Source: Candidatus Moraniibacteriota bacterium (lineage in GTDB: Bacteria > Patescibacteriota > Minisyncoccia > Moranbacterales > UBA11712). From it: a DNA stretch of 58,234 bases. The notes below the pieces were generated by a model. That model had not been told where the DNA came from and did no database searches. It saw only the letters and a list, made by a program, of their open reading frames with translations. The position numbers and the translations under genes are program-made. The stretch's first letter is position 1, and every line of letters begins with the position of its first letter. The DNA lies in NCBI GenBank assembly GCA_030679895.1, contig JAUXSN010000055.1:1-58234 (forward strand). The letters are read 5' to 3'. Below, one piece after another: positions 1-55,761 of this stretch.

Positions 1-2256
1 GTTGATCTCTCCCGTTGTTCCCGCTTCCAGGTTGATGGCGGTGGCGGCGGTGGAAACGGAGATGGTCGGAGCGGTGGAAGTGAAAGTGAGAGCAGTAGAA
101 GAGGTGGTGATGGTGTCGATTGAGGCGACGCCGGTCAGGGCCGCGGAATTGAAGTTCCAGTCGCCGTTCATGTTTCCGTCCGTGATGGTGTTAGTCCCCA
201 GATCAAGAGTGGTGAAATTTCCCGTTGTCGCCGTGAGCGCCGTGATTCCGGAAAGGTTGCCCGCGTTGAAATCCCAGCTACCGGTCATATTTCCGTCCGT
301 GATTGTATTCGTGCCGAGATCGAGCGTCGAAAGATAGACCGTTGTGAAAATCGGATTGTCGATCGTATCGAGCGTCAGGCTGATTCCCCCGCCAGCCGTA
401 CCCGATCCGCCGCCCTGCATATTCCCTTCCGTATTTACCGTAATGACCGTGCTGCCTTGAGCGATCGTATTTTCCGTCGAGCCGTATGTCGGCGAAACGG
501 TGAGCGTATTCAGTGTCCGCGAAGTCGCAATTCCGTCCGCGCCCGTGAAAATGGCGCCCTTGTTGGCTTTTATTTTCTGCCCCGCGTCTGTCGCGCTCGA
601 TTGCAATTTCCACGCTACATAATTGTCGTACGTTCCCGCCGGCTGATATGATCCAGCGACCTGGAAGGCAGTCGAGTGCTGTCCGTCGAGAAGGTCGGCG
701 TTGAGATTGGTGTTCAGGGTTCCGTTCGAAAGGGGAATATTTCCCGCTCCGTTGCCGATCGTTTGTCCGGCGACACTCATTGCGGTGCGAGCCAGTGGCA
801 TCGCTCCGATTCTCTTGCGCGGCACCATCTCCGCGTCTTCGCCGATCCGGAGGCCGATGTAATAATTCGAAGCGGCGAAATTGAAATTGGCGGGAATGGG
901 CGTTGTCGCGCCAAGATAAGTTTTAAGGAGACCATTTTCGACGACCACCTTTTGCGTTTCTTCCCAGACGCGCGTTCCCTTGTCCGCGTCCGAAGGATAC
1001 GGATCCTGCTCCGTCCGGTCGGCCGTATAAATTCCAAATCTCACCTCGTATTCGCCGTTCGCGATTTCTTTGTCCTCCCCATCCATGAGGTACGCCGAAA
1101 CTTCGATGTCACCGACATTTATTTGCGCCGTGCCGGTCGCCGTCGTCGCCGCCAGCACTTTACCCGCCGATGAGGCGAGCCGGCCGCCATTATCTCCTTG
1201 TTCCGTCTCTACGCCCGCGATCTCTCCTTTCCCATTTTCATCGCCCTTGAGGCTTAACCCCGTATTTTTTTCAAACTCTTTAATCTTTTCCCGCCGCAAA
1301 AAATTTTCGGCAATTTTTGAAAACCTGTCTTTTCCTATTTTCACTTTCGCGATTTGTTTCGCCGCGCCCGCGTCTATCCGCTCCGCGGCTTTCGAAACTC
1401 CATCGACCGCCGCATTGTATGTGAAATATATTTTTTTCTTCCCTTGATCTCCCAAATTTGCCAAATCCGCCTTTGTGATATTTCCAATCACCATCAAAAG
1501 AACCAGCACGATCATCGCCGCCGCCGGCTTCGCGTAATTAAGTTTCAAAAAATCCGACAGCTTCGCTTTTTTTAATTTCGCGAGCGTATTCGTGTCGCCC
1601 ATCTCTTTGAGCTCCCGAAACCAAGTTTTCACGTCTGCCAAAACCTTCGTTGTCCAAAAGCCAAGTTTCTGAAAATATAGCCGTAGCGGCCGCATAAATG
1701 CGGCCTGCGTTTTTTCGGGGCGCACATGCGCGCCCCCTACTTTTTCAACTTCCTCCGGCACGGCAAACTTTTTGTTGCCGCCCAAATCGCGCGAAAGTTT
1801 TTCTTTGAATGTATTTTTCTTCGCCTGTGATTTTTTCGTGAACTCGGCGAGCCACTCCTCCGTCGTGTGCCAAACTCCTTTTATTTTTTTTGCTTTCAGC
1901 TTTCCCTGCCGCGCCGAAAAGTTGATGTAGTTTTTTGAGTAGGTCGAATTTTTCGCTATTTCGGAGAGCAGAACAAAAACCAGATTTTTTTTCGCCTCTT
2001 TCTTTTTCGCGATCTCTGGCTTGTTCTTTGGAAGCTTAGCTTCCAGTGTGGAAGCTAAGCTTCCATTTCCCGGCTCAATTTCTCCGCCATACAACTCCGC
2101 CAGTCTCGCCCTCACATTCTTGATTGCCTTCTTTTCCGTCTCCAAAATTTTCGCAAACTTTTTTTCCGTCAAAAAAAGCCGAATGTTCCGAAAAGCATCC
2201 TCGGCTTTGCCGAAAAATATATCGCTGATTTTTTTTGTGTATTTTTCTTCCTTCAT
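1..2256 (-). CDS. Giant surface/fibre-like protein (continues past window start): N-terminal HTH-like domain, one TM segment, extracellular tail-fibre-like region
   Basis: Manual translation: ATG at 2256 preceded by GAGGT, open for 752 codons to base 1 (absent from the ORF track because there is no stop in the window). Contains LLSEIAKNSTYSKNYINFSARQGKLKAKKIKGVWHTTEEWL (HTH-like), AAAMIVLVLLMVIG (TM), NLNADLLDG and a duplicated TLDLGTNTITDGNM repeat. Confidence 0.85.
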   Translation of the reverse strand, partial: MKEEKYTKKISDIFFGKAEDAFRNIRLFLTEKKFAKILETEKKAIKNVRARLAELYGGEIEPGNGSLASTLEAKLPKNKPEIAKKKEAKKNLVFVLLSEIAKNSTYSKNYINFSARQGKLKAKKIKGVWHTTEEWLAEFTKKSQAKKNTFKEKLSRDLGGNKKFAVPEEVEKVGGAHVRPEKTQAAFMRPLRLYFQKLGFWTTKVLADVKTWFRELKEMGDTNTLAKLKKAKLSDFLKLNYAKPAAAMIVLVLLMVIGNITKADLANLGDQGKKKIYFTYNAAVDGVSKAAERIDAGAAKQIAKVKIGKDRFSKIAENFLRREKIKEFEKNTGLSLKGDENGKGEIAGVETEQGDNGGRLASSAGKVLAATTATGTAQINVGDIEVSAYLMDGEDKEIANGEYEVRFGIYTADRTEQDPYPSDADKGTRVWEETQKVVVENGLLKTYLGATTPIPANFNFAASNYYIGLRIGEDAEMVPRKRIGAMPLARTAMSVAGQTIGNGAGNIPLSNGTLNTNLNADLLDGQHSTAFQVAGSYQPAGTYDNYVAWKLQSSATDAGQKIKANKGAIFTGADGIATSRTLNTLTVSPTYGSTENTIAQGSTVITVNTEGNMQGGGSGTAGGGISLTLDTIDNPIFTTVYLSTLDLGTNTITDGNMTGSWDFNAGNLSGITALTATTGNFTTLDLGTNTITDGNMNGDWNFNSAALTGVASIDTITTSSTALTFTSTAPTISVSTAATAINLEAGTTGEIN
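2029..2065. repeat. 37-bp paired-hairpin palindrome, copy 1 (in frame in the giant gene)
   Basis: tggaagcttagcttcca-gtg-tggaagctaagcttcca; same arms at 20123-20159 and 44402-44438. Confidence 0.95.
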
Positions 2257-2398
2257 TACCTCGTTATATCCTTTTTATATCAGTTTTAACCGGGTTCTTT
2301 ACTTCAGGGGCTAAGTCCCCAATTGGTGACTTAGCTCTTCTTTATCTCGCACCCCTGTTATTTGCTTTGTTTATAAGATTAAGCGCCCTTCAAGATTA

Positions 2399-2859: not shown

Positions 2860-3484
2860 ATTTCTTCCCCGCCCATCCGAACATATCTTTGAACGCGCCG
2901 CCGAGAAGATCGAGAATGGAAACATTGGGAGCGCCGGTATAGAACGCGAGCTTGTCCGACTTGATTTCGTTTCCCCATTTGTCGCGCGCGGTCACGGCAT
3001 ATGAATATGAAGTTGAAAAATTGAGGGGCGCGATCTCGACGCTGTGAAGAAATCCGTAGCCGTCCTCGGAAACCGTTTTCTCTTCCGCTTGTCCTTCCTT
3101 CGCATACGCGATTGAAGAAACGCACGGCTTGTTCGTTTTCCAGCTCAAAAGAAATTTCACCTGCTGGTCTGTTTTTGTCATGAGAAGTTCCGATTGCATA
3201 TTCAGAATTTCAGGAGCGACTGATTGTTCTCCCGACGGAACTGTGATCGCGTCCCCGCCGAACGTGATTTGCGGCGAGTGAAAATTCTGGCTGACGAAAG
3301 CTTGCGTAGCGAAATCGTTCTCCTCTTCGCCCAAAACTTTCCCGGCAGTTTTTTCGTTGGAAATAGTTGCAGCTGTTTCTTTTGTTCCGGTCTTTGTCGA
3401 ACGAAAAGATAAAATCATCATTGAAAAATATCCGATTGAAATAACCAATACCGCGAGTAAAATTATTTTTATTATTTTTTTCAT
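2858..3484 (-). CDS. Membrane-anchored hypothetical protein with a fibronectin type III-like beta domain
   Basis: N-terminal hydrophobic anchor (IILLAVLVISIGYFSMMIL); LSWKTNKP...HSVEIAPL...YSYAVTARDKWGN is an FN3-like pattern; start taken at MKKIIK. Confidence 0.7.
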   Translation of the reverse strand: MKKIIKIILLAVLVISIGYFSMMILSFRSTKTGTKETAATISNEKTAGKVLGEEENDFATQAFVSQNFHSPQITFGGDAITVPSGEQSVAPEILNMQSELLMTKTDQQVKFLLSWKTNKPCVSSIAYAKEGQAEEKTVSEDGYGFLHSVEIAPLNFSTSYSYAVTARDKWGNEIKSDKLAFYTGAPNVSILDLLGGAFKDMFGWAGKK

Positions 3485-3494
3485 ATTATTTGTT

Positions 3495-3644
3495 GAACTC
3501 AAAACTCAAACTGCAAAACGCAAAACCAAAGCGTAAAATTCAAAATTATCTTTTTTAAAATCAGTTTTGCGCTTTGCGTTTTCATTTGTTTGAAAATTGT
3601 GTCATTGGAAATTGAGAATTGATTGTAAATTGAAAATTGGAAAT
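3495..3644. repeat. Composite heptamer-repeat intergenic element
   Basis: caaaacgcaaaaccaaagcg...ttttgcgctttgcgtttt inverted pair, followed by aattgagaattg/aattgaaaattgg units like 30052-30180. Confidence 0.6.
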
Positions 3645-8473: not shown

Positions 8474-8517
8474 ACTAAGTTTCCCCAAGATCCGGTCTTG
8501 GATAAGAAATATATTTC

Positions 8518-9504
8518 TTATCCGGCGGTAATTTTTAGCGAAATATCTTCGCTTGTTTTTTTAGCGTATCGGAGCATAAGTTTTTTCGCAAAATCAAGAA
8601 CGTCTTTGTTTCGTTTTCCCCGGACCAGCGCCGTCGGACCCGGAATATCTTTGGGCTCGACGAGAATATCCCCTTTTTCGGCGATTTTTTTGAGTTTCAG
8701 GTTTTCCTCGTGATTGCGGCCGAGAATAGTTTTTACCCAGCTAGAAGGTTCAGGCTCCGGGGATTCAGATTTTCTAACGGGGCGAACCCAAAAATGACGG
8801 CCCAGGCGAAGAAGCGCGATGTCGCTCGGTTTTATATTTTTGACCTTCGCCATAAGCTCGCGAAGTTTTTTCGAATATTCTTTGTCCGTCAGAATGCATC
8901 CGCCGGCCGGAGTCGGATAATATTTTATGCCGAATTTTTTCGCAAGCTCTATTTGATCTTTGCGTCCTCTGCCTGAAACACCAAGTAATTTTTCGCGGTC
9001 AACCAAACCCGTTTTTTCCATTTCCGTTTTCGGCAAAACTTTGGCCGATAGCGGCCGCAGAATTTTTTCCTCGAGCCCCGCTTCTCTTTCGATCAGTTTC
9101 AGCGCCCGTGCGTTTTGCGACATCGGCCGCTGGCCCAGCACTTCTCCGGTGGCAAGAAAATCATACTTATCTTTTTTCATTATGTATTTGGCGGCTTTCA
9201 GCATCAGGAGATGGCAGTCAATGCACGGATTCATTCCGACTCCATAGCCAAATTTTGGCTTTCTTATGATGCAAAAATGCTCGGGAGTTATATCCTCAAC
9301 ACGCAACCTGATCTTGTTTTCCCGCGCCGACTTTTTGGCTTCCTCAGAGGTGAAAAAATAACTCACGAATGTGAGCGCGGTCACGTCTATTCCCTGCCTT
9401 TCCAAAATCTTCACCGTGAGAATTGAATCCAGTCCTCCGGAAAACAACGCGAGAGCGCGAACGGCTCTCTTTATTGGTTTGTTTTTAATGCTATATGATT
9501 TCAT
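8518..9504 (-). CDS. tRNA thiouridine synthase-like PP-loop ATPase (ThiI/MnmA-related) with a C-terminal NFACT-R-like domain
   Basis: LFSGGLDS PP-loop, NPCIDCH, ATGEVLGQRPMSQ, PAGGCILT, ILGRNHEEN. Confidence 0.8.
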   Translation of the reverse strand: MKSYSIKNKPIKRAVRALALFSGGLDSILTVKILERQGIDVTALTFVSYFFTSEEAKKSARENKIRLRVEDITPEHFCIIRKPKFGYGVGMNPCIDCHLLMLKAAKYIMKKDKYDFLATGEVLGQRPMSQNARALKLIEREAGLEEKILRPLSAKVLPKTEMEKTGLVDREKLLGVSGRGRKDQIELAKKFGIKYYPTPAGGCILTDKEYSKKLRELMAKVKNIKPSDIALLRLGRHFWVRPVRKSESPEPEPSSWVKTILGRNHEENLKLKKIAEKGDILVEPKDIPGPTALVRGKRNKDVLDFAKKLMLRYAKKTSEDISLKITAG

Positions 9505-11489: not shown

Positions 11490-11512
11490 TTCCTAAAGTT
11501 CGACTTTAGGAA
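11490..11512. repeat. Perfect TCG-triloop hairpin at a gene boundary
   Basis: ttcctaaagt-tcg-actttaggaa. Confidence 0.75.
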
Positions 11513-17519: not shown

Positions 17520-17555
17520 ATACTTATGCAGATTTTCATTTCCTAATCAACGAGA

Positions 17556-18239
17556 TTAGGAAACAAATTTTTTGATTTCCGTCTGCGCTTTTTCAAGATC
17601 TTCGGGAGATCCTACTGACATCCATTCAGTTGCAGTGATAACTTTTATTTTATGCTTGTCCGCCATCTTAGCCAGTGTCTGCGGAAGGCCAAACTCTTTC
17701 TCGGTAATTCTTACAAGGTCATAATTAAAAAAATCCCTGTTCAAAACCATAGCTCCGGTGTTAATAAGCTTGAACTCGAATGAATCCGGTTTTTCTATTA
17801 TGTCCACTAAATTCCCTTCTTTATTAGTTTTTATAACGCCATATTTTCTCGGATCTTCCACTTCCCAACCAAGAACCGCGAAATCCTCCGCGCATAATTT
17901 TTCGATGTCCGATTTCAGATAGAGATCGTCTCCATTTAAAACCAGAAAATCTCCTTTGATCAGATCCTTGACGCAAAAAACAGCGCCACCGGTTCCGTCC
18001 AATTCGTCGTGTCTTACGTAAATAATTTTCTTTCCCTTATAACTATCTTTGAAATGCTCTCGGATATGATCACCAAGATAGTTTATGACGAGAATTATTT
18101 CCTCAACTTGGTCTGGTACTGCGTCCAGAATATATTCAAGAAGTGGCCGACCATTCACGGGTAAAATTGGTTTCGGAATGTCATACGTCAGTGGCCTCAT
18201 GCGGGTTCCTTTGCCAGCGGCGAGTATAACTGCTTGCAT
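17556..18239 (-). CDS. Sugar-phosphate nucleotidyltransferase (GlmU N-terminal-like)
   Basis: AVILAAGKGTRMRPLT...PKPIL, FLVLNGDD, EKP; no acetyltransferase beta-helix. Confidence 0.85.
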   Translation of the reverse strand: MQAVILAAGKGTRMRPLTYDIPKPILPVNGRPLLEYILDAVPDQVEEIILVINYLGDHIREHFKDSYKGKKIIYVRHDELDGTGGAVFCVKDLIKGDFLVLNGDDLYLKSDIEKLCAEDFAVLGWEVEDPRKYGVIKTNKEGNLVDIIEKPDSFEFKLINTGAMVLNRDFFNYDLVRITEKEFGLPQTLAKMADKHKIKVITATEWMSVGSPEDLEKAQTEIKKFVS

Positions 18240-18286: not shown

Positions 18287-18348
18287 AAAGGTTTGACCTT
18301 GAGGAATTCCCGGGCGTTTAGTCGGGGAAGGGAAAGGTCGAACCTTGG
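18287..18348. repeat. 62-bp three-hairpin element, intergenic copy
   Basis: 53/62 identical to the reverse complement of 44757-44818. Confidence 0.9.
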
Positions 18349-18376: not shown

Positions 18377-20872
18377 TTAGATTACGAAATTTATCAATCT
18401 GTCTCTTACAAAAATTATTTTCTTAATCGAACTGTCTCCAATATATTTTACTATTTTATCCTGCGCCAGCGCCAATTCTTTCGCGTCTTTTTCCTTGACA
18501 CCCGATGCGACCTCGATCTGATCCCGCACCTTGCCGTTTATTTGGATAACAAGCATTATTTGTTCGTCTTTTATCAGCTTTGGATCATATTCCGGCCATT
18601 TTTCAAAGAATATAGATTTGTCGTGGCCTAGTTTTTCCCAAATTTCTTCAGCGATGTGAGGAACAAAGGGAGATAATAATTTAATGAACAGTGAACAGTG
18701 AACAGTGAACAGTCTTTCTTGTTTTTCAAGTTCATTTAGAAAGATCATCAATGCAGATATAGCGGTATTAAATCGGAAACTCTCTATATCTTCTGTGACT
18801 TTTTTAATAGTTTTGTGTAATAAAATTTCTAAATTATTGTTCACTGATCGCTGTTCGCTGATCACTGACTTCAACTTCCAGACTTTGTCCAGGAAGCGTC
18901 GCATCCCCACCACGCCTTTCGTGTTCCAGGCGATATTTTGCATGAACGGACCCATGAACATTTCGTAGAGCCGAATCGAATCCGCGCCGTATTCGAAAAT
19001 CACTTCATCGGGATTGATGACGTTTCCCCAGCGCTTGGACATTTTTCTTCCGTCTTCTCCTTGGATGAGTCCAACGTGCACCAATTTCTTGAAGGGTTCT
19101 TTTGTGGAGACCACTCCGATGTCGTATAAAAATTTGTGCCAGAAGCGGGCGTAAAGAAGATGCCGCGTCGCGTGTTCCGCTCCGCCGACATAGAGATCAA
19201 CGGGCATCCATTTTTTTTCTTCTGTCTTACCCACCAATTCTTTTTCGTTCTTTGGATCGATATAGCGAAGATAATACCAGGAAGATCCCGCCCATTGCGG
19301 CATCGTATTCGTCTCGCGTTTTCCCGGTCCCCCGCACTGCGGACATTCCGCATTCACCCATTCTTTGATGTTTGCCAGCGGCCCCTCCCCTGTTCCGGTC
19401 GGTTCGTATTTTTCCACTTTCGGAAGTTCAACCGGCAGATCTTTTTCCGGAACGCCGACCGTTCCGCATTTTTCGCAGTGAATGATCGGGATCGGCTCGC
19501 CCCAATATCTCTGCCGTGAAAAAACCCAATCCCGCATTTTATAATTAACTTTCTTCCCGCCGATCTTTTTCTTCTCCAGCCACGCAGCCATTTTTTCACG
19601 AGCTTTTTCGGAAGTGAGATCGGAATATTTTCCGGAGTTTACTAATTTTCCGTCACATATAAAGCAATCTGATTCGACCCGCAACTCCGTTCTGGCGCCA
19701 GCCGCAATATCTTCCAAATTTCTTGGAATATTTAATAATTCTTCAGGGAGGATTACTTTCTTGATCGGCAACTTATACTTTTTCGCAAACTCAAAATCCC
19801 GTTCGTCATGCGCCGGAACCGCCATCACCGCGCCGGTGCCATAATGGCCAAGAACGTAATCAGCGACAAATAGCGGTAATTCTTCATTATTAAAAGGATT
19901 AGTTACTCTTATACCTTGAAGTTCAACTCCCGTTTTTTCTTTTTGCAGATCAGTCCGCTCCAGATCGGTTTTGTTTTGCGCCTTGATAACATATTTCTCA
20001 ACTTCTTTGTAGTTTTTAATTTGATCTTTCAGTTTTTCGATAATTGGATGCTCCGGACCAACAACGCAGTATGTGCAACCAAAAATAGTATCCAAGCGAG
20101 TCGTAAAAACTTCGAGCATATTTGGAAGCTTAGCTTCCATTGTGGAAGCTAAGCTTCCATTAGTCACAATTGAAAATTTCACGATTGCTCCTTCGCTTCT
20201 TCCGATCCAGTTTTTTTGCTGGTCAACAATGGATTTTTCCCAGTCCAACTCTTCCCTGTCCAGATCTTCAAGCAGCCGATCGGCATAATCCGTCATTTTG
20301 AGCACCCATTGGCGCATTTTTTTCTGGACAACCTGCGTGCCACAGCGTTCGCAAAGGCCGTTTTCGAGATCCTCTAGAGCCAGTCCCGTTTGGCAGGAGG
20401 GGCACCAGTTGATCGGCTCGTCGGATTCAAAAGCCAGGCCTTTCTCAAACATCTTGAGAAAGATCCACTGCGTCCATTTATAATATTCCGGATCAGTTGT
20501 ATTTATTTCCCGGTCCCAGTCGTACGTGAAACCAAACAGCCCAAGCTGTTTTTTGAAAGTTTTGATGTTTTCTTTGACTGCCGCCTCGGGATGAATTTTA
20601 TTTTGGATGGCATAGTTCTCGGCCGGAAGACCAAAAGCGTCCCAGCCCATCGGATGAAGGACTGAAAACCCATTGAGCATCTTGAAGCGCGAAACGACAT
20701 CGGTCGCAATATATCCTTTGGGATGCCCGACATGAAGACCTGCTCCCGAAGGATAAGGAAACATATCGAGAGCATAGAATTTCTTTGGCTTCGAATAGTC
20801 CTTATATATACCACTTTCCGCCCATTTCTTCTGCCATTTCCGCTCGATTAATTTTGGATTATATTTCTTCAT
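18377..20872 (-). CDS. leuS: Leucine--tRNA ligase
   Basis: MFPYPSGAGLHVGH, GWDAFGLPAEN, KMSKR, VFTT editing domain; start taken at MKKYNP. Confidence 0.98.
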   Translation of the reverse strand: MKKYNPKLIERKWQKKWAESGIYKDYSKPKKFYALDMFPYPSGAGLHVGHPKGYIATDVVSRFKMLNGFSVLHPMGWDAFGLPAENYAIQNKIHPEAAVKENIKTFKKQLGLFGFTYDWDREINTTDPEYYKWTQWIFLKMFEKGLAFESDEPINWCPSCQTGLALEDLENGLCERCGTQVVQKKMRQWVLKMTDYADRLLEDLDREELDWEKSIVDQQKNWIGRSEGAIVKFSIVTNGSLASTMEAKLPNMLEVFTTRLDTIFGCTYCVVGPEHPIIEKLKDQIKNYKEVEKYVIKAQNKTDLERTDLQKEKTGVELQGIRVTNPFNNEELPLFVADYVLGHYGTGAVMAVPAHDERDFEFAKKYKLPIKKVILPEELLNIPRNLEDIAAGARTELRVESDCFICDGKLVNSGKYSDLTSEKAREKMAAWLEKKKIGGKKVNYKMRDWVFSRQRYWGEPIPIIHCEKCGTVGVPEKDLPVELPKVEKYEPTGTGEGPLANIKEWVNAECPQCGGPGKRETNTMPQWAGSSWYYLRYIDPKNEKELVGKTEEKKWMPVDLYVGGAEHATRHLLYARFWHKFLYDIGVVSTKEPFKKLVHVGLIQGEDGRKMSKRWGNVINPDEVIFEYGADSIRLYEMFMGPFMQNIAWNTKGVVGMRRFLDKVWKLKSVISEQRSVNNNLEILLHKTIKKVTEDIESFRFNTAISALMIFLNELEKQERLFTVHCSLFIKLLSPFVPHIAEEIWEKLGHDKSIFFEKWPEYDPKLIKDEQIMLVIQINGKVRDQIEVASGVKEKDAKELALAQDKIVKYIGDSSIKKIIFVRDRLINFVI
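18685..18712. repeat. (TGAACAG)4 heptamer array inside leuS
   Basis: Read directly; encodes LFTVHCSLF. Confidence 0.9.
18842..18869. repeat. Degenerate CACTGAT heptamer array inside leuS
   Basis: cactgat cgctgtt cgctgat cactgac; encodes SVISEQRSV. Confidence 0.75.
20123..20159. repeat. 37-bp paired-hairpin palindrome, copy 2 (in frame in leuS)
   Basis: tggaagcttagcttcca-ttg-tggaagctaagcttcca. Confidence 0.95.
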
Positions 20873-20924
20873 AAAACACAATTAATACTTCTACAATCTA
20901 GCCTATTTTCAAGTTTTTATCAAG

Positions 20925-23976: not shown

Positions 23977-24008
23977 GATATATAGTAGGTTTAAAACTTA
24001 GCTCAAAT

Positions 24009-24105
24009 CTCAAAATTCAAAGCGTAAAGCCACAGCGCAAAGCGTAAAATTTTTTAGTCTTTAGCTTTGAGTTGTGGTTTTGAGTTTTGCGCTTTGCGTT
24101 TTGCG
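24009..24105. repeat. 97-bp heptamer-derived inverted-repeat element, copy A (after atpC)
   Basis: About 5 mismatches versus 29586-29682. Confidence 0.9.
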
Positions 24106-24106
24106 T

Positions 24107-24547
24107 TTACTCAATCCTCATTCCCCTCCTCGTCAAATGCTTTCGCGCCACTTTTATTCTGGCTAAGTTCTTCTCGAAGATCGCCGCCACGGTCGCGTAT
24201 TGGACTTCATCAGTCTGAATCCTTTCTTCTTTCAATTTTTCGGCTCGATCTTTCGCCTCTTCAGCCCGTTTGATGTCAATTTCTTCCGCCCGCTCGGCCG
24301 TGTCAGCCAAAATCGTAATTTCGTTTTTGCGAACTTCAACCATCCCGCCTGAAACCGCCATCGCGATTTCTTCGCCATCTTTTTTCGCGACTAGCTCTCC
24401 TGGTGCCAAAACGGAAATGAGCGGAATATGGTTTGGAAGCACGGTAATCTCTCCTTCTTGGGTAGGAAGGGTGACTTGATCAATGCTATCCTCGTAGACT
24501 GTTTTTTCAGGAGTTACTATTTTAAATTTTATCTTTTTGCCATTCAC
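24107..24547 (-). CDS. atpC: ATP synthase epsilon subunit
   Basis: KFKIVTPE, GEITVLPNHIPLIS, ITILADTAE; GTG start inferred. Confidence 0.93.
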   Translation of the reverse strand: MNGKKIKFKIVTPEKTVYEDSIDQVTLPTQEGEITVLPNHIPLISVLAPGELVAKKDGEEIAMAVSGGMVEVRKNEITILADTAERAEEIDIKRAEEAKDRAEKLKEERIQTDEVQYATVAAIFEKNLARIKVARKHLTRRGMRIE

Positions 24548-27019: not shown

Positions 27020-27024
27020 TTTTT

Positions 27025-27130
27025 CAGTGAACAGTGAACAGTGAACAGTGATCAAAAAATAATCAATGTTCTCAAATTCACTGTAGTAAAAAATAAAATT
27101 ACTGATCACTGATCGTTGATCACTGATCGT
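27025..27130. repeat. CAGTGAA / CACTGAT heptamer inverted-repeat element in the atpA-atpG spacer
   Basis: (cagtgaa)3cagtgat at 27025-27052 faces actgatcactgatcgttgatcactgatc at about 27101-27128. Confidence 0.8.
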
Positions 27131-29567: not shown

Positions 29568-29585
29568 AGTATTTTTAGTTCAAAG

Positions 29586-29682
29586 CTCAAAATTCAAAGC
29601 GCAAAGCCACAGTGTAAAGCGTAAAGTTTTTTAGTTTTTAGCTTTGAGTTGTGGTTTTGAGTTTTGCGCTTTGCGTTTTGCG
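29586..29682. repeat. 97-bp heptamer-derived inverted-repeat element, copy B (after atpE)
   Basis: Near identical to 24009-24105. Confidence 0.9.
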
Positions 29683-29689
29683 CTTGAAA

Positions 29690-33913: not shown

Positions 33914-34597
33914 TTAATGCACGATTATCACAAATTCTCCTTTTATTCTTCCCTCTTTTCCTTCAAAATGTTTCCTGATCTCTCCAATCTCCCCTCGCTG
34001 AATTTCTTCGAACATTTTCGTCAGTTCCCGCCCTACTATCAGTTTAGCATCTGGCTTGAATTTTGAAAGAAGCTCCAAGTTTTTCAAAACCCGGTGCGGG
34101 GACTCAAAATAGATGACCGGATATTTGCTTTCCGCCACTCCGCGGAAAAAAGTTTCCCGTCCTTTCTTGTGCGGCGGAAAACCAAGAAAACAAAATTTAC
34201 TCATATTGATCCCCGCCACGCTCGCCAACGCCGTCAACGCCGACGCGCCCGGAATCGGAACAATTTCAACATTTTTAAGGTTTAGCCTTAAAAATACAAT
34301 CAGCTCGTTTCCGGGATCTGATATCCCCGGCGTTCCGGCGTCGGAAACCAGCGCCAGATTTTTTCCATTCTCGAGATGCTCGACAATTTTCTCCACTCTT
34401 GAGAGCTTGCTGTGATGGTGATATGATAAAAGGGGTTTTTGAATTTCGTAGCGGTCGAGAAGCTTTTTCGTCACCCGCGTGTCCTCGCATAAAATCAAAT
34501 CGACTTCTTTGAGAACACGCAAAGCGCGCAAAGTGATATCTTCAAGGTTTCCGATGGGGGTGGCAACGATGTAAAATTTTCCTATATTATTAACCAT
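33914..34597 (-). CDS. rsmI: 16S rRNA C1402 2'-O-methyltransferase
   Basis: YIVATPIGNLEDITLRAL, SDAGTPGISDPG, FESPHR, RELTKMFEE, KGEFV. Confidence 0.96.
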   Translation of the reverse strand: MVNNIGKFYIVATPIGNLEDITLRALRVLKEVDLILCEDTRVTKKLLDRYEIQKPLLSYHHHSKLSRVEKIVEHLENGKNLALVSDAGTPGISDPGNELIVFLRLNLKNVEIVPIPGASALTALASVAGINMSKFCFLGFPPHKKGRETFFRGVAESKYPVIYFESPHRVLKNLELLSKFKPDAKLIVGRELTKMFEEIQRGEIGEIRKHFEGKEGRIKGEFVIIVH

Positions 34598-38891: not shown

Positions 38892-38939
38892 TACCCAAGA
38901 GCTTAGCTCTTGGGTATTTGCATAGAGGTTTAACCTCTA
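38892..38939. repeat. Two adjacent perfect mini-hairpins between glyQS and pepA
   Basis: tacccaagagct-t-agctcttgggta (38892-38916) and tagaggt-tta-acctcta (38923-38939). Confidence 0.8.
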
Positions 38940-42014: not shown

Positions 42015-43298
42015 TCAGGACAGTTTCTTCATCAGCAGCGACTTTTGAGGGAATTTCCCCAGTAACCTAACAAAACAAACGTTCTTGCTCCCTCCATGGG
42101 CAGACCCGACTGATTCGCCTTTTTCGTTTTTTATCTCCTCTACTCGCGAAATAAAAATGTTTTTCGGGGTAATAATTTCAACTTTTTCACCAGTCTTAAG
42201 CGCATTATGCGCTTTTATTTTTTGCCAGCTTTTTCTATTTTTCCCGATAATTTCCCCTACAAATTGATAACTATTTTCCCGATGGGAACAGTCAGAATTA
42301 TTCTCCCATTTATCCTTTCCGAATAAAAACCCGGTTGAGTATCCCCGATTTGTCAGTTTATTCAATTCATTTTTTTCCGCCTTGATAATCTTATTTAACT
42401 CTTTTTCTGATTTTTTGCTTCCAATCGCGTCAATTACTCGGCGATAGGCTTTTGTTGAAACAGCCGCGTAGAAAACACTTTTTGTCCTTCCTTCAATCTT
42501 AAACGCATTTATCCCGGCCTTGGCCAATTTATCCAGATGCTCGATCAAACAAAGATCTTTGGAATTTAGAAAGTATGTTCCGTGTGAATCTTCTTCCACG
42601 GTCATAATTTTTGAATCATCCGCATATAAAATGTCCGTCCCGCTCTGCGGGACACCAAAGTTTTGCGCTTTGCACTTTGCTCTTTGCACTTTATATTTCC
42701 ATCGGCACGGCTGAACGCAGTCCCCCAAATTGGCGCTCCGATACCGCATCCAGCTGGATAGCAAACATCGCCCGGAAAGACTCATGCACATCGCCCCGTG
42801 AACAAAATATTCGAGTTCTATTTTCGGACACGCTTTCCTGATTTTTTTGATTTCTTCAAGCGTAACTTCCCGCGCCAGAACTATTCTTGACACTCCCTGC
42901 AACCGCCAAAATTTTACCGCTTCCGAATTTGTGGTATTGGCCTGCGTGGAAAGATGGATCTTGATTTTTGGAGAATGCTTTTTAACCAGGCTTAATATTC
43001 CGGGATCGCTGACGATCACCGCGTCGGGCTTGATTTTTTTTATAAACGCGAGATGTTTTTTTATTTCAGCCAAATGCCGCTGATGCGCATAAATATTGAG
43101 CGTAAAGTATATTTTTTTGTCGAGCTTTCGCGCCGCGTCCACCGCTTTTTTTAGATTCTTTTCGCCAAAATCATTGAGTCTTGCCCGAAGAGAAAAATCC
43201 GGATGACCGATATAGACCGCATCCGCGCCGAAGTGATAGGCATATTCAATTTTCTCAAGACTCCCGCCGGGAGCGACAAGTTCGATTTTTTTGACCAT
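42015..43298 (-). CDS. U32 family protein (TrhP/YegQ-like tRNA hydroxylation)
   Basis: ELVAPGG, GADAVY, HGAMC.S.SGRC, C.QPCRW, SKDLC, KIEGR.KS. Confidence 0.9.
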   Translation of the reverse strand: MVKKIELVAPGGSLEKIEYAYHFGADAVYIGHPDFSLRARLNDFGEKNLKKAVDAARKLDKKIYFTLNIYAHQRHLAEIKKHLAFIKKIKPDAVIVSDPGILSLVKKHSPKIKIHLSTQANTTNSEAVKFWRLQGVSRIVLAREVTLEEIKKIRKACPKIELEYFVHGAMCMSLSGRCLLSSWMRYRSANLGDCVQPCRWKYKVQRAKCKAQNFGVPQSGTDILYADDSKIMTVEEDSHGTYFLNSKDLCLIEHLDKLAKAGINAFKIEGRTKSVFYAAVSTKAYRRVIDAIGSKKSEKELNKIIKAEKNELNKLTNRGYSTGFLFGKDKWENNSDCSHRENSYQFVGEIIGKNRKSWQKIKAHNALKTGEKVEIITPKNIFISRVEEIKNEKGESVGSAHGGSKNVCFVRLLGKFPQKSLLMKKLS

Positions 43299-44176: not shown

Positions 44177-45421
<1,245 letters not shown>

Positions 45422-49196: not shown

Positions 49197-52133
49197 TTAA
49201 ACCCTTTTGAGCCACACTTTGATAGCTTCCGCTTCCAGATCCAAAAGTTCGGAAATATCGGCGTCGGTTTTTTCGTCTTCCGTTTCTATCGCTCCCGTCG
49301 CCAGAACTTCCCGAGCTATCAAATCGCCGAATTTTTCAAAAATAGCGGTTCCCCCTTTATAGTACACATTTATCCTGTCGTCAACCTGGAATCCGGCATG
49401 TTTGCGAAGCTCTTGGATTCTTCTCACAATTTCGCGCGCCTCCCCTTCCAGCCGCAAATCATCCGAAATCGCCGTGTCGAGGCCGATCATCCAGTTTCCT
49501 TCTTTCTCGGTATAAATGCCGGCTTTCATTTCAACCGATCCGTAAAACTTGATTTCTTTTACGTTTACTTCGTCCTTTATCAGGTTCGCTAAATCTTCGT
49601 CCACCGGCTGATTGATTTGCAGCTCGGAAAGCGGCTGGCGGACTTTGATTCCCGCTTTCGCTCTCGCCGCCAGTCCCAGTTTCACAAACCGGCGCGTGAT
49701 CTGCATTTGCTCGTTGAGTTCCTTATCAATCAACTTTTCATTTTCTGCGGGAAAATTCGCCAAGTGAACAGAATCTTCTCCCGAGAGATTCTTATAGACT
49801 TCCTCCGCGACAAACGGCGTGAAGGGCGCCATCAGTTTCGAAAGCTCCGTTAAAACGTAGTGCAAAGTTTCATATGCCTGTTTTTTGTCCTCGTCATTCT
49901 CGCTTTTCCAGAATCTCTTCCGGCTCCGGCGGATATACCAATTGGAAAGATTATCAATAAACACCGGAAACAACCTTGCTGCTTTATTTAACTCATAATT
50001 CTCCATGTGCTGATTGACGTTTTTGATCAAGCTGTTCAGCTCTGAAATGATCCACTTGTCGAGCAAGTTCCCAAGGTCCGACCTTGAGACGTTCCCAAGG
50101 TCCGACCTTGGTTCGAACTTATCTATATTCGCGTAAAGCACGAAAAATGAATACGTATTCCAAAGCATCCGGAACATTCCTTTGAAAATATCTTTTAGAT
50201 CTTCATCGTTGAAGTTCAAATTTTCTCCTCCCATGAGGGGAGACTGCATCAGATAAAATCTAAAAGCATCGGCGCCGTATCGGTCGATCAGGATATTCGG
50301 ATCAGTGAAATTTCCAAGCGACTTCGACATCTTCTTTCCGTCGCTTCCGGCGATCGTTCCAGTCGTGACCGCGTTCAAGAAGCTTGACTTTCCAAAGAGA
50401 CCGACGGAAAGCACGTGAAGCGTATAAAACCAGCCCCTTGTTTGAGCAATATATTCGGAAATAAACTGAGCGGGAAATCTGTTCTTGAATTCTTCTTTAT
50501 TTTCAAAAGGATAATGAAATTCAGCAAATGGCATCGACCCCGATTCAACCCAGCAATCAAAAACATCCGATATTCTTTTCATCACTCCGCCGCACTTTTC
50601 GCAGGGAAAAGTTATCTCGTCAATCATCGGCCGATGATAGTCTTCGAGTCTCTTTCCGGATAGCTTTTCCAGTTCTCCAAACGACCCGATTATTTTCGCG
50701 TTGTTACATTCCAAAGCTTTGCGCTTTGAGCTTTGCGCTTTGAGCTTATTCTCGCACTCCCAAATCGGCATAGGCGTTCCCCAAAAACGGGAGCGGGAAA
50801 CATTCCAATCGGGAGCCGTTTCAAGACCATTCTTAAATCTTCCTTCTTTGAGATGCGCCGGATGCCAGTTAATTTTTTCATTTTCGTCAAGCAATTTTTT
50901 CTTGAGATCGGAAATCTTGATAAACCACGCCGGTTGAACCATGTATATGAGTTTCGTGTGGCAACGATAGCAAAACGGATAAGAATGAGAGATATTTTCT
51001 TTTTTAAAAACAAGGCCCTGTTCGGCGATATGCTTTAATATTTTAAAATTCGCTTCCCAGACATTTTCACCAGCCCATTTTCCATCTTTGAATTTTCCTT
51101 CGTCGTCCACATTTTCAATGATGGGTAAATTTTTTTCTTTTCGCGTTCGAAAGTCATCTTCCCCGAAAGCCGGAGCTATGTGCACAATTCCCGTTCCTTC
51201 CTCCAGACTTACAAAATCACCGGAGACTACCCGATAACCGTTTTTAATTTTTTGAGGAAAAATCGGTTGATAGATAAGATTAACCAAATCTTTTCCTGTC
51301 ATTTCTTTTTCTATTTTATAATCTCCACTGATAATTTCTAGCCTTTCTTTGGCTAGAATATATTTTTCTCCGTCTTGTTTTACCAGTGCATAGATTGCAT
51401 TCGGATTGACGGCGATCGCGACATTCCCCGGCAATGTCCAGGGAGTAGTCGTCCATACTAAAAATTTTGCGGCTTTAAAATCCTCCTCATCTTCGATTTT
51501 CAATTTGAAATATACAGAAGCGTCTTGTACATCACGATAGCTCGAATCCATAGCAATTTCAAAATTGGAAAGCGGCGTCGCGCAACGCGGGCAATAAAGA
51601 GAAATTCGAGAATCTTTATATACCAGTTTTTTATTGTGCAACTCTTTGAATCCCCACCAGACTGATTCCATAAAATCGTTGTCCATCGTCTTGTAGGAAT
51701 TGTCAAAATCTACCCAGCGCCCGATTCGGCGAATGGTTTTCCGCCATTCGTCCGCGAATTGCAGAACTGTATTTCTAGCCTCATCGTTGAATTTAGCGAT
51801 ATTTTTTTCGATGTCTTTTTTTCCTTTGTAGTCGAATTTTTTTTCAATAATATTTTCAATCGGCAGGCCGTGCGTATCCCATCCCCAGCGGCGCGGCACA
51901 TTATATCCCTTCATCGTCCAGTACCGAGGAACTACATCTTTCGAGGTCGAGGCTAAAAGATGGCCGTGGTGAGGCAGGCCCGTCGCGAACGGCGGACCGT
52001 CATAAAAAGAATAGAGCTCCGCATCCTTGCGGTTCTCCAAAGATTTTTCGAATATTTTATTCTCTTCCCAGAATTTGAGGATATTTTCCTCCATTTCAGG
52101 AAGGGATTGTTTTGGATCGACAGGTTTCAACAT
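49197..52133 (-). CDS. ileS: Isoleucine--tRNA ligase, type 2 (archaeal/eukaryote-like)
   Basis: FYDGPPFATGLPHHGH, WTTTPWTLP, QTRGWFYTL, KMSKS, no C-terminal FPG-type zinc finger. Confidence 0.97.
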   Translation of the reverse strand: MLKPVDPKQSLPEMEENILKFWEENKIFEKSLENRKDAELYSFYDGPPFATGLPHHGHLLASTSKDVVPRYWTMKGYNVPRRWGWDTHGLPIENIIEKKFDYKGKKDIEKNIAKFNDEARNTVLQFADEWRKTIRRIGRWVDFDNSYKTMDNDFMESVWWGFKELHNKKLVYKDSRISLYCPRCATPLSNFEIAMDSSYRDVQDASVYFKLKIEDEEDFKAAKFLVWTTTPWTLPGNVAIAVNPNAIYALVKQDGEKYILAKERLEIISGDYKIEKEMTGKDLVNLIYQPIFPQKIKNGYRVVSGDFVSLEEGTGIVHIAPAFGEDDFRTRKEKNLPIIENVDDEGKFKDGKWAGENVWEANFKILKHIAEQGLVFKKENISHSYPFCYRCHTKLIYMVQPAWFIKISDLKKKLLDENEKINWHPAHLKEGRFKNGLETAPDWNVSRSRFWGTPMPIWECENKLKAQSSKRKALECNNAKIIGSFGELEKLSGKRLEDYHRPMIDEITFPCEKCGGVMKRISDVFDCWVESGSMPFAEFHYPFENKEEFKNRFPAQFISEYIAQTRGWFYTLHVLSVGLFGKSSFLNAVTTGTIAGSDGKKMSKSLGNFTDPNILIDRYGADAFRFYLMQSPLMGGENLNFNDEDLKDIFKGMFRMLWNTYSFFVLYANIDKFEPRSDLGNVSRSDLGNLLDKWIISELNSLIKNVNQHMENYELNKAARLFPVFIDNLSNWYIRRSRKRFWKSENDEDKKQAYETLHYVLTELSKLMAPFTPFVAEEVYKNLSGEDSVHLANFPAENEKLIDKELNEQMQITRRFVKLGLAARAKAGIKVRQPLSELQINQPVDEDLANLIKDEVNVKEIKFYGSVEMKAGIYTEKEGNWMIGLDTAISDDLRLEGEAREIVRRIQELRKHAGFQVDDRINVYYKGGTAIFEKFGDLIAREVLATGAIETEDEKTDADISELLDLEAEAIKVWLKRV
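50067..50110. repeat. 24-bp-period direct repeat of a CCG-triloop hairpin inside ileS
   Basis: gttcccaaggtccgaccttg twice; encodes RSDLGNVSRSDLGN. Confidence 0.9.
50717..50747. repeat. CTTTGCG/CTTTGAG heptamer array inside ileS
   Basis: Encodes KLKAQSSKRKA; 20-mer ctttgcgctttgagcttatt is identical to intergenic 2843-2862. Confidence 0.85.
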
Positions 52134-52230
52134 AACAAAAAATATTATCTAAACCCCTTTAGACATTTAACCTTTATTTTTGACAATCGTCAACTTCGTT
52201 GAGCATGTAAAGTTTAGGGAGTCTGTTCCC

Positions 52231-54609: not shown

Positions 54610-55735
54610 TACTGATAGTCCAGAACTTGTACATATATATATATAGCAGATTATCTGATTGATTTAAATACACATAACCTACACTGTTTCCAATAATGGC
54701 TGGCGATGTAGATGTATTATAAGTCTTCACTACTAAGTCAGTATTTATGTCAAGAACTGAAAGACCGTTGTTCGTGCTGACATAAAGCAAGTCATTGGCT
54801 TCATCAAACAAAACTTGAGAGATGCTATTACCGGCAATAGCCGGAGTTGACGATGTTCTATAGGTTTTGATTAGAACATCATCTGCTGGATCAACTGTCC
54901 CCTTCGTGTCGATCACAGATAGTCCATTGCCCGTGGAAACATACAACCGATTCCGTTGGGTATCAAGATATGAAGAATTGATTTCGTTACTAGCAATGGC
55001 GGGAGTGGAAGTCGTAGAATATCTAATAACTAAAGTATCGTCCGATGGATCTTTTGTTCCTTGGGTATTGATAACTGATAGCCCTCCAGGACCAGTGCTT
55101 CCATATGTAATGGTGCTCACGTAAAGGAGATTATGATCCTTATCAAGGAAGGAGTGTAAAACTACATTACTGCCAATAGCCGGATTTGTATCCACCCTAT
55201 AATTCATGACTAGCGTGTCGTCATTGGGAAGAGGGGTGCCTTTCGTATCAAGCACTGACAATCCCCCCAAATCAGTTCCGTAATATACAGGCCAACCCCA
55301 AGTACTGACATAAATGAGATTATCTGAAAAATCTGCAAAAGCGTGCATTGCATATTGATGACCTATGGCTGGAACGGTGTCTGAACTATAATAATAGGTA
55401 TATCCTTTACCAAGTGTTAGCTCACTGTCTTCACTCTCTGAAATGTTAGTTCTGTTATAGCCTGAGTCTGGTTGAATATCTCCTCTCTCAAAATCCTCTT
55501 TCGTCGTCTCCGTATAGGTATTGAGGTTCTGTTTGAGTTTCACATCCCCCGGCGCTTGGTTGAGCTCGAGGGTGTTGTCGACGGCTCCAGCTTGGAAATC
55601 AGCTTGGGTGTCTTGGATAATCTGTCCACTAGCCGCATTCGCTTTCTTAGTCTGCAAGGGATAAGGAAAAACAATCGCTAGGGTCAAAAGCAGTGCTGAA
55701 AATATTTTTATTCTTTTTTTTCTTTGTCTTTTCAT
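54578..55735 (-). CDS. 5' part of the same surface protein: signal peptide plus LVIVD-like propeller repeats
   Basis: Signal peptide ending ANAA; repeats NLLYVST..GLSV.DT.GT.DP.DD; reading frame derails at LLYIYMY. Confidence 0.85.
   Translation of the reverse strand: MKRQRKKRIKIFSALLLTLAIVFPYPLQTKKANAASGQIIQDTQADFQAGAVDNTLELNQAPGDVKLKQNLNTYTETTKEDFERGDIQPDSGYNRTNISESEDSELTLGKGYTYYYSSDTVPAIGHQYAMHAFADFSDNLIYVSTWGWPVYYGTDLGGLSVLDTKGTPLPNDDTLVMNYRVDTNPAIGSNVVLHSFLDKDHNLLYVSTITYGSTGPGGLSVINTQGTKDPSDDTLVIRYSTTSTPAIASNEINSSYLDTQRNRLYVSTGNGLSVIDTKGTVDPADDVLIKTYRTSSTPAIAGNSISQVLFDEANDLLYVSTNNGLSVLDINTDLVVKTYNTSTSPAIIGNSVGYVYLNQSDNLLYIYMYKFWTISSGHEGNQRYL
54633..54645. repeat. (AT)n microsatellite at the frameshift
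   Basis: atatatatatata, 13 nt; 9 or 15 nt would restore the frame. Confidence 0.9.
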
Positions 55736-55761
55736 TTTTCATCTTTCTTTTAGCTGTTCCC

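Follow-up and report, generated by a model that had tools for sequence, protein, structure and literature searches.

How does one and the same short palindromic sequence come to lie both between genes and, as an in-frame insert, inside the gene for queuine tRNA-ribosyltransferase (Tgt)? This question is raised by contig JAUXSN010000055.1 (assembly GCA_030679895.1) of a Candidatus Moraniibacteriota bacterium, a member of the Candidate Phyla Radiation (CPR), which was analyzed over its whole length of 58,234 nt and is referred to as the window in the following. Our results indicate that the sequence is probably a doublet of repetitive extragenic palindromes (REPs), a non-autonomous mobile hairpin of the REPIN type. 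It would belong to a system of REPs and REP-associated tyrosine transposases (RAYTs) in Moranbacteria-like CPR bacteria and would have become adapted to coding DNA.

The initial annotation had matched positions 18287-18348 to the reverse complement of 44757-44818 at 53 of 62 positions without gaps, and we could reproduce this figure. A repeat search extended the inverted pair to 69 nt at 83 % identity, the longest inverted repeat of the window. The natural unit is 60 nt long, with copy A at 18288-18347 on the plus strand and copy B at 44758-44817 on the minus strand. A covariance model, trained on 44 copies including these two, assigned 81.1 bits (E 1.5e-19) to copy A and 82.1 bits (E 7.9e-20) to copy B, but only 27-34 bits to the opposite strands, so that the element has a definite polarity. 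Copy A is intergenic and separates two genes that are both encoded on the minus strand. The stop codon of the LeuRS gene (18377-20881) precedes it by 29 nt in transcriptional order, and a nucleotidyl-transferase (NTP-transferase) gene (17556-18239) begins 48 nt after it. It is slightly decayed: the inner stem contains one mismatch and the outer one a T:G wobble (-13.8 kcal/mol and z -3.65 when folded as DNA). A simple terminator scan did not call copy A. Copy B, in which both stems are perfect (-21 kcal/mol, z -8.2), is part of the tgt gene (44177-45406, minus strand, PF01702) and encodes residues 197-217 (21 residues) of the enzyme. As had been proposed from the two sites, one family thus occupies coding and non-coding positions on opposite strands.

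To derive the anatomy of the element, we aligned 44 distinct copies of 60 nt. A self-palindromic arm of 13 nt, AAGGTTCGACCTT, is followed by the linker GAGGAATT, a variable, covarying inner hairpin, the second linker AAGGGAA, the inverted arm AAGGTCGAACCTT and a final G. Written as the aligned consensus, the order is AAGGTTYGACCTT for the arm, GAGGAATT for the linker, the inner hairpin, AAGGRAA for the second linker, AGGTCGAACCTT and G, where AGGTCGAACCTT is the remainder of AAGGTCGAACCTT and the first A of this arm is the last A of the linker. In the minimum-energy fold, the whole unit forms a single long hairpin, whose stem is divided into an outer part of 13 bp and an inner part of 9 bp. 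Across the alignment, pairing in the outer helix amounts to 99.7 %, and double (compensatory) changes affect seven of the nine pairs of the inner one. Altogether we counted 78 compensatory cells compared with 21.7±3.4 in shuffled alignments, a value that none of 500 shuffles reached, and the signal collapsed in slid controls. The three separate hairpins of the initial annotation are thus replaced by one in the minimum-energy fold, but its terminal hairpins, as judged from the alignment, capture a real constraint: each arm is itself a 5-3-5 palindrome, and this self-complementarity is kept in every subfamily, also in those with differing arms (AAAGCTTGGCTTT, AAGGTTTGGCCTT, AAAGTCCGGCTTT), where 4.2 of 5 self-pairs are retained versus 1.8 of 5 in controls. 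For the arm motif AAGGTYBRACCTT we counted 15 occurrences in the window, where 0.94 would be expected.

The consensus ends read xAAGGTT...CCTTG and are embedded in A/T-rich flanks. Target-site duplications were not detectable, as 72 of 86 copies had no direct repeat at their junctions and the remainder was at or below chance. Palindromes in the flanks were likewise absent, except for a subfamily with an extra outer stem made of GAATTTTTC and GAAAAATTC. Whole elements are often nested in place of the inner hairpin of another element, and short forms consisting of arm, spacer and arm also exist. A T7:G53 wobble, which is kept across subfamilies, was considered as proof that only the forward strand folds and was rejected as such: coding constraint explains the asymmetry equally well, because a G53>A change creates TGA or replaces Ser by Leu in the two most-used reverse frames.

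The initial annotation had also named two observations that would speak against mobility, namely that only these two copies exist and that the peptide is an ancestral loop shared by Tgt orthologues. The family turned out to be far larger than two copies. The 5' 21-mer of the element was present in 101 metagenome stretches and in 45 stretches from about 11 species-representative metagenome-assembled genomes (MAGs), all of them Moranbacteria-like CPR, with up to ~15 per MAG. A further 59 matches to the covariance model were found in 306 kb of Moranbacteria-like MAG genomes, and the window itself contains two full copies together with two short forms. All assemblies in which the element was found are Moranbacteria-like CPR. 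A 17-mer scan of viral contigs resulted in 16 matches, all of them due to chance and without a second arm, and a search of the whole window against Rfam gave no match at gathering thresholds. As a side observation, four MAGs with Moranbacteria-type RAYT genes are deposited as 'Bdellovibrionales' or 'Bathyarchaeia archaeon': CAZFIH01 (loci L002 and L320), CAZHTL01 (L216), CAZJOI01 (L241) and DATGZC01 (L009). CAZFIH01, CAZHTL01 and DATGZC01 also carry the 21-mer of the 60-nt element. The Tgt of DATGZC01 is of the Moranbacteria type and 73 % identical to that of the window; the four taxonomic labels therefore look like binning or labelling errors.

The second observation, an ancestral loop, was addressed by comparing Tgt proteins. 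In comparison to solved Tgt structures, the window Tgt contains three extra segments, which coincide exactly with three palindromic inserts, copy B and two further ones. It may be noted in its own right that a single enzyme of 409 aa holds three palindromic insertions. An AlphaFold model of this protein (predicted local distance difference test, pLDDT, 80; predicted template modelling score, pTM, 0.83) showed pLDDT values below 50 only at residues 33-37 and in the insert regions 93-117, 199-207/210-214 and 323-332. In this AF2 model, the copy B segment falls between helix 170-197 and strand 220-225 and is predicted to form a disordered loop. For the evolutionary comparison we used 120 listed orthologues, all of them at most 77 % identical; an exact-match look-up of the window Tgt found nothing, and the protein collection contained no orthologue above 77 %, hence no true empty allele of this very site. 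The segment between the RWAKRCKxYF helix and the following strand varies from 29 to 84 residues among the orthologues. The site is empty in some of them (e.g. P0057 and P0067). P0002 carries the same element there, oriented as in the window, P0017 and P0022 carry it the other way round, and P0005 possibly has a solo arm (KGSTLK). The copy in P0056, like copy A, is decayed. A sister family (KSSAFSF...NSSKPSF) fills the site in about a dozen orthologues and a KFKIQN-type repeat in many others.

The DNA sequences gave the same picture. Deleting the 60 nt of copy B from the window tgt restores ...AAA A|GA AGG CCT... in frame, which translates to DKKIKRRPLLF. In L200, the same element occupies the site in inverted orientation with its junction 1 nt away, and in L201 the site is empty. 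Because orthologues are either empty, carry the same element either way round or carry other repeat families, we conclude from these alignments that the copy B peptide is not an ancestral loop and that the Tgt site has been colonized repeatedly.

The family appears fitted to a genome of which ~90 % is coding, both by a length divisible by three and by five open frames. The distance from arm to arm is 56 nt in 28 copies and 59 nt in 51 copies, which together with the conserved 3' G results in units of 57 or 60 nt. In the census of model matches, 58 of 59 copies measured 57, 60 or 63 nt, and the three copies of the first census with a length not divisible by three all belonged to the ORF-edge or non-coding class (ORF, open reading frame). 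The consensus is free of stop codons in five of six frames. The sixth contains a TGA, and the single coding copy that uses this frame carries an A15>G change, which removes the stop. Between 67 % and 75 % of the copies are located inside stop-free frames of at least 150 codons (59 of 88 in the first census, 44 of 59 among the model matches), in genes of conserved enzymes. Host proteins among those examined include a MiaB-like methylthiotransferase, a MurE-like ligase, TsaD, UvrA, LigA, MetRS, ArgRS, a CCA-adding (PolyA_pol-family) enzyme, an M24 peptidase and XseA.

Frame use is skewed. In the 88-copy census, the frame reading QGSTF..SRSNL was used 28 times and KVRPF..PQGQTL 21 times, both yielding peptides rich in Gly, Ser, Pro and Arg, versus a single use of the hydrophobic frame. 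Coding copies are mostly oriented opposite to the 'forward' strand, with ratios of 50:9 and 33:11 in the two censuses. This bias is compatible with strand-specific single-strand transposition, but selection that acts on the peptide or the mRNA structure could also account for it. Non-coding copies lie between genes and not between the halves of split genes. Together with the length divisible by three, the open frames and the avoidance of the hydrophobic frame, this argues, at the level of sequence, that the insert is translated and not spliced out.

Which enzyme could move such an element? A candidate was found in an element-bearing contig as an ORF of 243 aa. It was first picked up by a heuristic tblastn search with approximate Y1 queries, and its identification rests on Pfam, NCBIfam and Foldseek. 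Pfam assigned it to Y1_Tnp (PF01797; 28.8 bits, cut-off 23), and the best NCBIfam model was the REP-associated tyrosine transposase (REP_Tyr_transpos) with 27.8 bits, which is below the cut-off of 80. We retrieved 80 relatives, almost all of them from Patescibacteria, and both the HUH motif and the catalytic tyrosine are invariant among these RAYT-like proteins (NxHxH and Y(V/I)N). Searching the PDB by sequence gave no match, neither with a single sequence nor with a profile. The predicted fold (pLDDT 86) identified 4er8_A as best Foldseek match (E 2.2e-6), the E. coli 'REP associated tyrosine transposase bound to a REP hairpin', followed by the TnpA proteins of IS608 and ISDra2; the link to 4ER8 thus comes from the predicted fold only.

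The neighbourhood of these genes connects them to the element. At the 20 loci inspected, nearly every RAYT-like gene is flanked by a perfect palindrome that is specific for its lineage (AAGGTTGAACCTT in the case of L241), and in most of the genes this palindrome recurs in frame at a constant internal position. Across 62 RAYT loci, 48 contain the internal palindrome, and in 35 of those the same core is also present just outside the gene. We used the peptide encoded there as a read-out of the REP of each RAYT and retrieved the genes with FLRSNL at this place. In L320 and L321, the RAYT gene is flanked by CTAAGGTTCGACCTTAG and contains CTAAGGTCGAACCTTAG in frame. The Y1 gene of L320 (3001-3663) has CCTAAGGTTCGACCTTAGG upstream, CCTAAGGTCGAACCTTAGG in frame and two more copies downstream, which are exactly the arms of the element. 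L321 and L319 are similar, with AAGGTTCGACCTT/AAGGTCGAACCTT palindromes upstream of and inside the Y1 gene; downstream copies are present in L320 and L319. L320 is a contig of CAZFIH01, a MAG with five or more full 60-nt elements, and RAYT genes are present in several other element-bearing loci as well.

Two further observations concern the internal REP. In Patescibacteria RAYT-like genes (L239-L318) it is located at a fixed site around nt 160-205, for example at 2199-2221 in L239, 2202-2218 in L241 and 3201-3219 in L320, and it encodes a helix-loop that is confidently predicted just before the HUH strand. We did not find an in-frame cognate REP inside RAYT genes described in the RAYT literature surveyed. 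In L008 (minus strand), a RAYT remnant (~3140-3331) is truncated exactly at the internal REP and directly followed by a TatD gene with a solo REP and a nested 60-nt element of its own; this arrangement suggests that RAYT genes may be lost by REP-mediated deletion.

A REPIN is defined as two inverted REPs with a short, diverse spacer that are mobilized and duplicated by RAYTs (PMC8049555). The element was assigned to this type because its two inverted REPs and its short, diverse spacer match that definition, and a RAYT gene flanked by its own REP corresponds to what has been termed a REPtron (PMC3733652, PMC5581495). The likeness covers the many short palindromic copies, the two inverted REPs which together with a highly variable short spacer form one long hairpin, the missing target-site duplication and the Y1/HUH transposase gene flanked by its own REP. 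It also includes several REP families per genome, each with its own RAYT, and singlets or clusters as products of decay or recombination. Of the two affinities that the initial annotation had offered, MITE-like or REP-like (MITE, miniature inverted-repeat transposable element), the second one is therefore favoured, as the arms are the core of the RAYT-flanking palindromes, and the first is the weaker one, as neither target-site duplications nor an autonomous insertion sequence (IS) of the DDE type with these terminal repeats were seen. REP/REPIN-RAYT systems themselves were reportedly worked out in E. coli and Pseudomonas (Nunvar 2010, Bertels & Rainey 2011, Ton-Hoang 2012, Messing 2012).

The system described here departs from the classical REP-RAYT picture in five respects. 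Neither a GTAG nor a CGTC tag is present, a conserved asymmetric linker (GAGGAATT/AAGGGAA) is part of the spacer, the length of 57 or 60 nt is a multiple of three and leaves five frames open, between two thirds and three quarters of the copies lie in frame within genes, and the cognate REP is found in frame at a constant site of the RAYT gene. Moreover, the CPR/Patescibacteria hosts are not among the phyla listed in the REP survey (PMC3733652), a genome can have more than one RAYT, and the RAYT-like protein, with ~220 aa, is too diverged for PDB sequence searches.

The anatomy of the element and its association with RAYT genes lend good support to hairpin transposition by a RAYT as the probable mechanism, in which in-frame copies persist in loops that tolerate them. 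The doublets would be copied and inserted without target-site duplication by a RAYT-like HUH/Y1 single-strand DNA transposase, whose own gene has this REP both on its flanks and within. Insertion into a gene would keep the frame and be translated as a loop of 19-20 residues rich in Gly, Ser, Pro and Arg. Copies would survive where this loop meets a tolerant surface position, such as the one in Tgt between the helix and the strand described above, and copy A downstream of LeuRS would represent the ordinary 'extragenic' version. By inference, this RAYT lineage would mobilize the 60-nt doublets, and the mature protein would retain the peptide with a nearly neutral effect.

Several points weigh against the assignment to a RAYT-mobilized REPIN. 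The location of the copies is mostly intragenic, whereas REPs and REPINs are almost always extragenic by name and survey. A GTAG (or CGTC) tag, the signal cleaved by the E. coli RAYT, is conserved neither at the ends of the element nor in the RAYT-flanking REPs. These flanking REPs are singlets with a longer stem (CTAAGGT.../...ACCTTAG; CCTAAGG...CCTTAGG), and directly next to a RAYT gene we did not see any 60-nt doublet with the GAGGAATT/AAGGGAA linker. The 58-kb window contains no RAYT gene, and co-occurrence in its own genome is thus not visible. The 5' 21 nt of most sampled copies were set by the search pattern, which introduces an ascertainment bias. Finally, nearly identical arms with a different inner hairpin at orthologous sites fit gene conversion or cassette exchange as well as transposition.

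This last point leads to the strongest alternative, which we consider unlikely: a selfish palindrome comparable to the Rickettsia palindromic elements (RPEs), without a dedicated transposase, which is spread and homogenized by host recombination or gene conversion between the arms and whose likeness to RAYT-associated REPs reflects shared ancestry only. When orthologous sites are compared between species, identity is 64-86 % in the flanks, whereas the arms (~100 %) and the linker are nearly invariant, and the inner hairpin sometimes belongs to a wholly different class, with swaps between the 57- and the 60-nt class. From these comparisons, cassette-like replacement, gene conversion between copies or repeated site-specific insertion is suggested. 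The nested and short forms resemble products of recombination, the orientation is conserved at all orthologous pairs but one, and CGTC-type REPs and RPEs have been reported without a dedicated transposase (PMC3733652). On the other hand, the exact 13-nt arm flanks RAYT genes and sits inside them in element-bearing genomes, the Tgt loop was struck independently in opposite orientations 1 nt apart, and copies are found at many unrelated sites that share no flanking homology.

A classical MITE, i.e. a deletion derivative of a DDE-type IS with 13-bp terminal inverted repeats that is moved in trans by cut-and-paste, is very improbable. Perfect 13-nt terminal inverted repeats, small size and many copies would agree with it, but the 86 copies lack target-site duplications, and the ends are self-palindromic hairpins resembling REPs. 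A long element with these ends was not found either. Loci lacking a nearby 3' arm contained neither a distant partner arm nor an autonomous IS with the same ends (the cases were nested elements, unrelated hairpins or chance matches), and there was no DDE transposase in the loci or, by Pfam, in the window.

Equally improbable is a functional module that is selected for its product or RNA, either as a peptide motif (GST...RSNL) or as a regulatory mRNA hairpin. The arms and the linker are indeed conserved far above the flanking coding DNA, and the use of frame and orientation is non-random. However, at least five frames and orientations of one and the same DNA are in use and give unrelated peptides, and the DNA is intergenic in addition; its hosts are unrelated enzymes hit at unrelated positions, the loop in Tgt is predicted to be disordered, an Rfam match is missing, and copies such as copy A and P0056 have decayed. 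The least probable explanation is a hairpin 'mini-intron' of 60 nt that is excised from the mRNA and leaves the protein unaffected: a very stable hairpin inside an essential-type gene would suit it, yet excision needs neither a length divisible by three, as seen in 58 of 59 copies, nor open frames nor the avoidance of a hydrophobic frame, the only coding copy in the stop frame has lost its TGA by A15>G, and the non-coding copies are not surrounded by split genes. Further candidates were discarded: a DNA-uptake sequence, for which the copy number is far too low; an integron attC site, as R/L boxes are absent and the copies are intragenic; and CRISPR, retron or diversity-generating retroelement, none of which fits anatomically.

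Coming back to the REP doublet as the preferred explanation, a close parallel to its intragenic life is found in Rickettsia, where palindromic elements were reportedly described by Ogata (2000/2002) and by Claverie & Ogata (2003). RPEs are in-frame palindromes in conserved housekeeping genes of a small-genome bacterium, they add an extra peptide at tolerant surface positions, occur between genes as well and show no clear target-site duplication (PMC2229807, PMC10969869). In contrast to the modular and nested units of 57 or 60 nt described here, which are linked to a RAYT lineage, they measure 105-150 bp, are specific for Rickettsia and have another sequence (PMC2229807). About half of the RPE-1 copies lie in ORFs, no dedicated transposase is known, and RPE-4 and RPE-6 are CGTC-type REPs. 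Intragenic dimers of GTAG or CGTC REPs in Opitutus terrae, Thioalkalivibrio, Xanthomonas and others encode 20-30 aa inside uvrA, uvrB and recB (Di Nocera 2013, PMC3733652), comparable to the hosts UvrA, LigA and XseA in our data. Those dimers, however, are tagged and a small minority of extragenic families (PMC3733652), whereas here the intragenic copies form the majority, and length and frames look fitted. Palindromes that are read through therefore have precedents in intragenic REP dimers and Rickettsia RPEs, where this is the minority state (PMC3733652, PMC2229807, PMC10969869). MITEs with coding potential (the 107-bp form of Correia, ERIC, YPAL, Coxiella QMITE) are alike in their small size, terminal inverted repeats, long stem-loops and in-frame fusion to ORFs, but typically show target-site duplications (often TA) and have a DDE-type parent IS, neither of which applies here (PMC2229807, PMC5896051). 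Our literature search found no work linking RAYT/REPIN, MITEs or coding palindromes to CPR.

REPs are 'extragenic' by name, and REPIN-RAYT systems have been studied almost only in Proteobacteria and as intergenic elements. A system of this kind in CPR bacteria, whose ultra-small genomes leave hardly any room between genes, and with elements that seem fitted to life inside genes, offers a concrete origin for many odd insertions in CPR housekeeping proteins. For annotation and phylogenomics of CPR, recurrent homoplastic inserts of 19-20 aa at one loop can mislead alignments. They also represent a natural experiment in the tolerance of proteins to random insertions in loops, and the REP carried in frame by RAYT genes opens a new approach to RAYT-REP co-evolution. 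Tentatively, we would go further and envisage that CPR bacteria host an undescribed branch of REP-RAYT systems, with coding-competent doublets (whole codons, free of stops, nested) that mainly colonize housekeeping genes and are a major ongoing source of lineage-specific loops in CPR. In such a branch, the RAYT gene would obligatorily carry its cognate REP in frame, and the helix-loop before the HUH strand could serve self-recognition or autoregulation and co-evolve with the REP; we regard this wider proposal as possible but somewhat doubtful.

Apart from the two full copies, the window contains a number of other palindromic repeats. One short-form relative lies in frame in the IleRS gene (50072-50110, minus strand, 31-32 bits) and consists of the arm AAGGTCGGACCTT, a spacer of 8-11 nt and a second arm, encoding the peptide PRSDLGNVSRSDLG. 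The other is a perfect 40-nt palindrome in frame in site 1 of Tgt (45059-45098, minus strand, 28 bits, -22.2 kcal/mol), whose arms GAGGTCTCACCTC/GAGGTGAGACCTC follow the same 5-3-5 pattern and which encodes a peptide of 14 residues. At 34271-34295, a gene of the TP_methylase family (33914-34597, minus strand) contains an in-frame solo REP, ATTTTTAAGGTTTAGCCTTAAAAAT. The RAYT gene of L202 (JASEHL01) has the identical palindrome on its flanks and in its interior.

A second family of REP doublets, TGGAAGCTTAGCTTCCA-nnn-TGGAAGCTAAGCTTCCA, is present at 20123-20159 (LeuRS), 44402-44438 (Tgt) and 2029-2065 (ORF 1-2274, minus strand, extending beyond the left end of the window). Each of the three is read in frame as NGSLAST(M/V/L)EAKLP, and similar TGGAAG...CTTCCA doublets flank the RAYT genes in L243, L244, L252, L256, L260 and L267. 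A AAAGCGCAAAGC-type repeat occurs in frame at 50711-50747 (IleRS) and 42655-42691 (U32 peptidase), with the peptides KLKAQSSKRKALE and KVQRAKCKAQNFG, and between genes at 2817-2855, 3501-3587, 23998-24108 and 29575-29685. Two copies of this type with 111 nt, 93 % identical, are positioned just outside ATP-synthase genes, one downstream of the epsilon-subunit gene and one upstream of the b-subunit gene, and the KFKIQN-type repeat found in the Tgt loop of many orthologues is related to this family. Small perfect hairpins mark gene boundaries at 8500-8523, 11490-11512, 17539-17563 and 38892-38916. They include TTCCTAAAGTTCGACTTTAGGAA, the core of which is an arm variant, and TTTCCTAATCAACGAGATTAGGAAA, and resemble the TTCCTAA...TTAGGAA REPs flanking the RAYT genes of L239 and L240. 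In total, the window contains 24 hairpins with perfect arms of at least 10 nt compared with 2-8 in shuffled sequences.

Other repeats are tandem in nature. The 7-mer (GTGAACA)n is found at 18680-18711 in the C-terminal part of LeuRS (LFTVHCSLFIK) and at 27023-27054 and 27098-27129. The latter two positions are upstream of the ATP synthase gamma gene or in its annotated N-terminus, where the GTG start may be mis-called. The region 52180-58234 consists of large minus-strand ORFs made of tandem units of ~141-162 nt, the GC skew flips its sign there, and it includes a diverged duplication of ~3.5 kb (52223-53325 versus 55754-56862).

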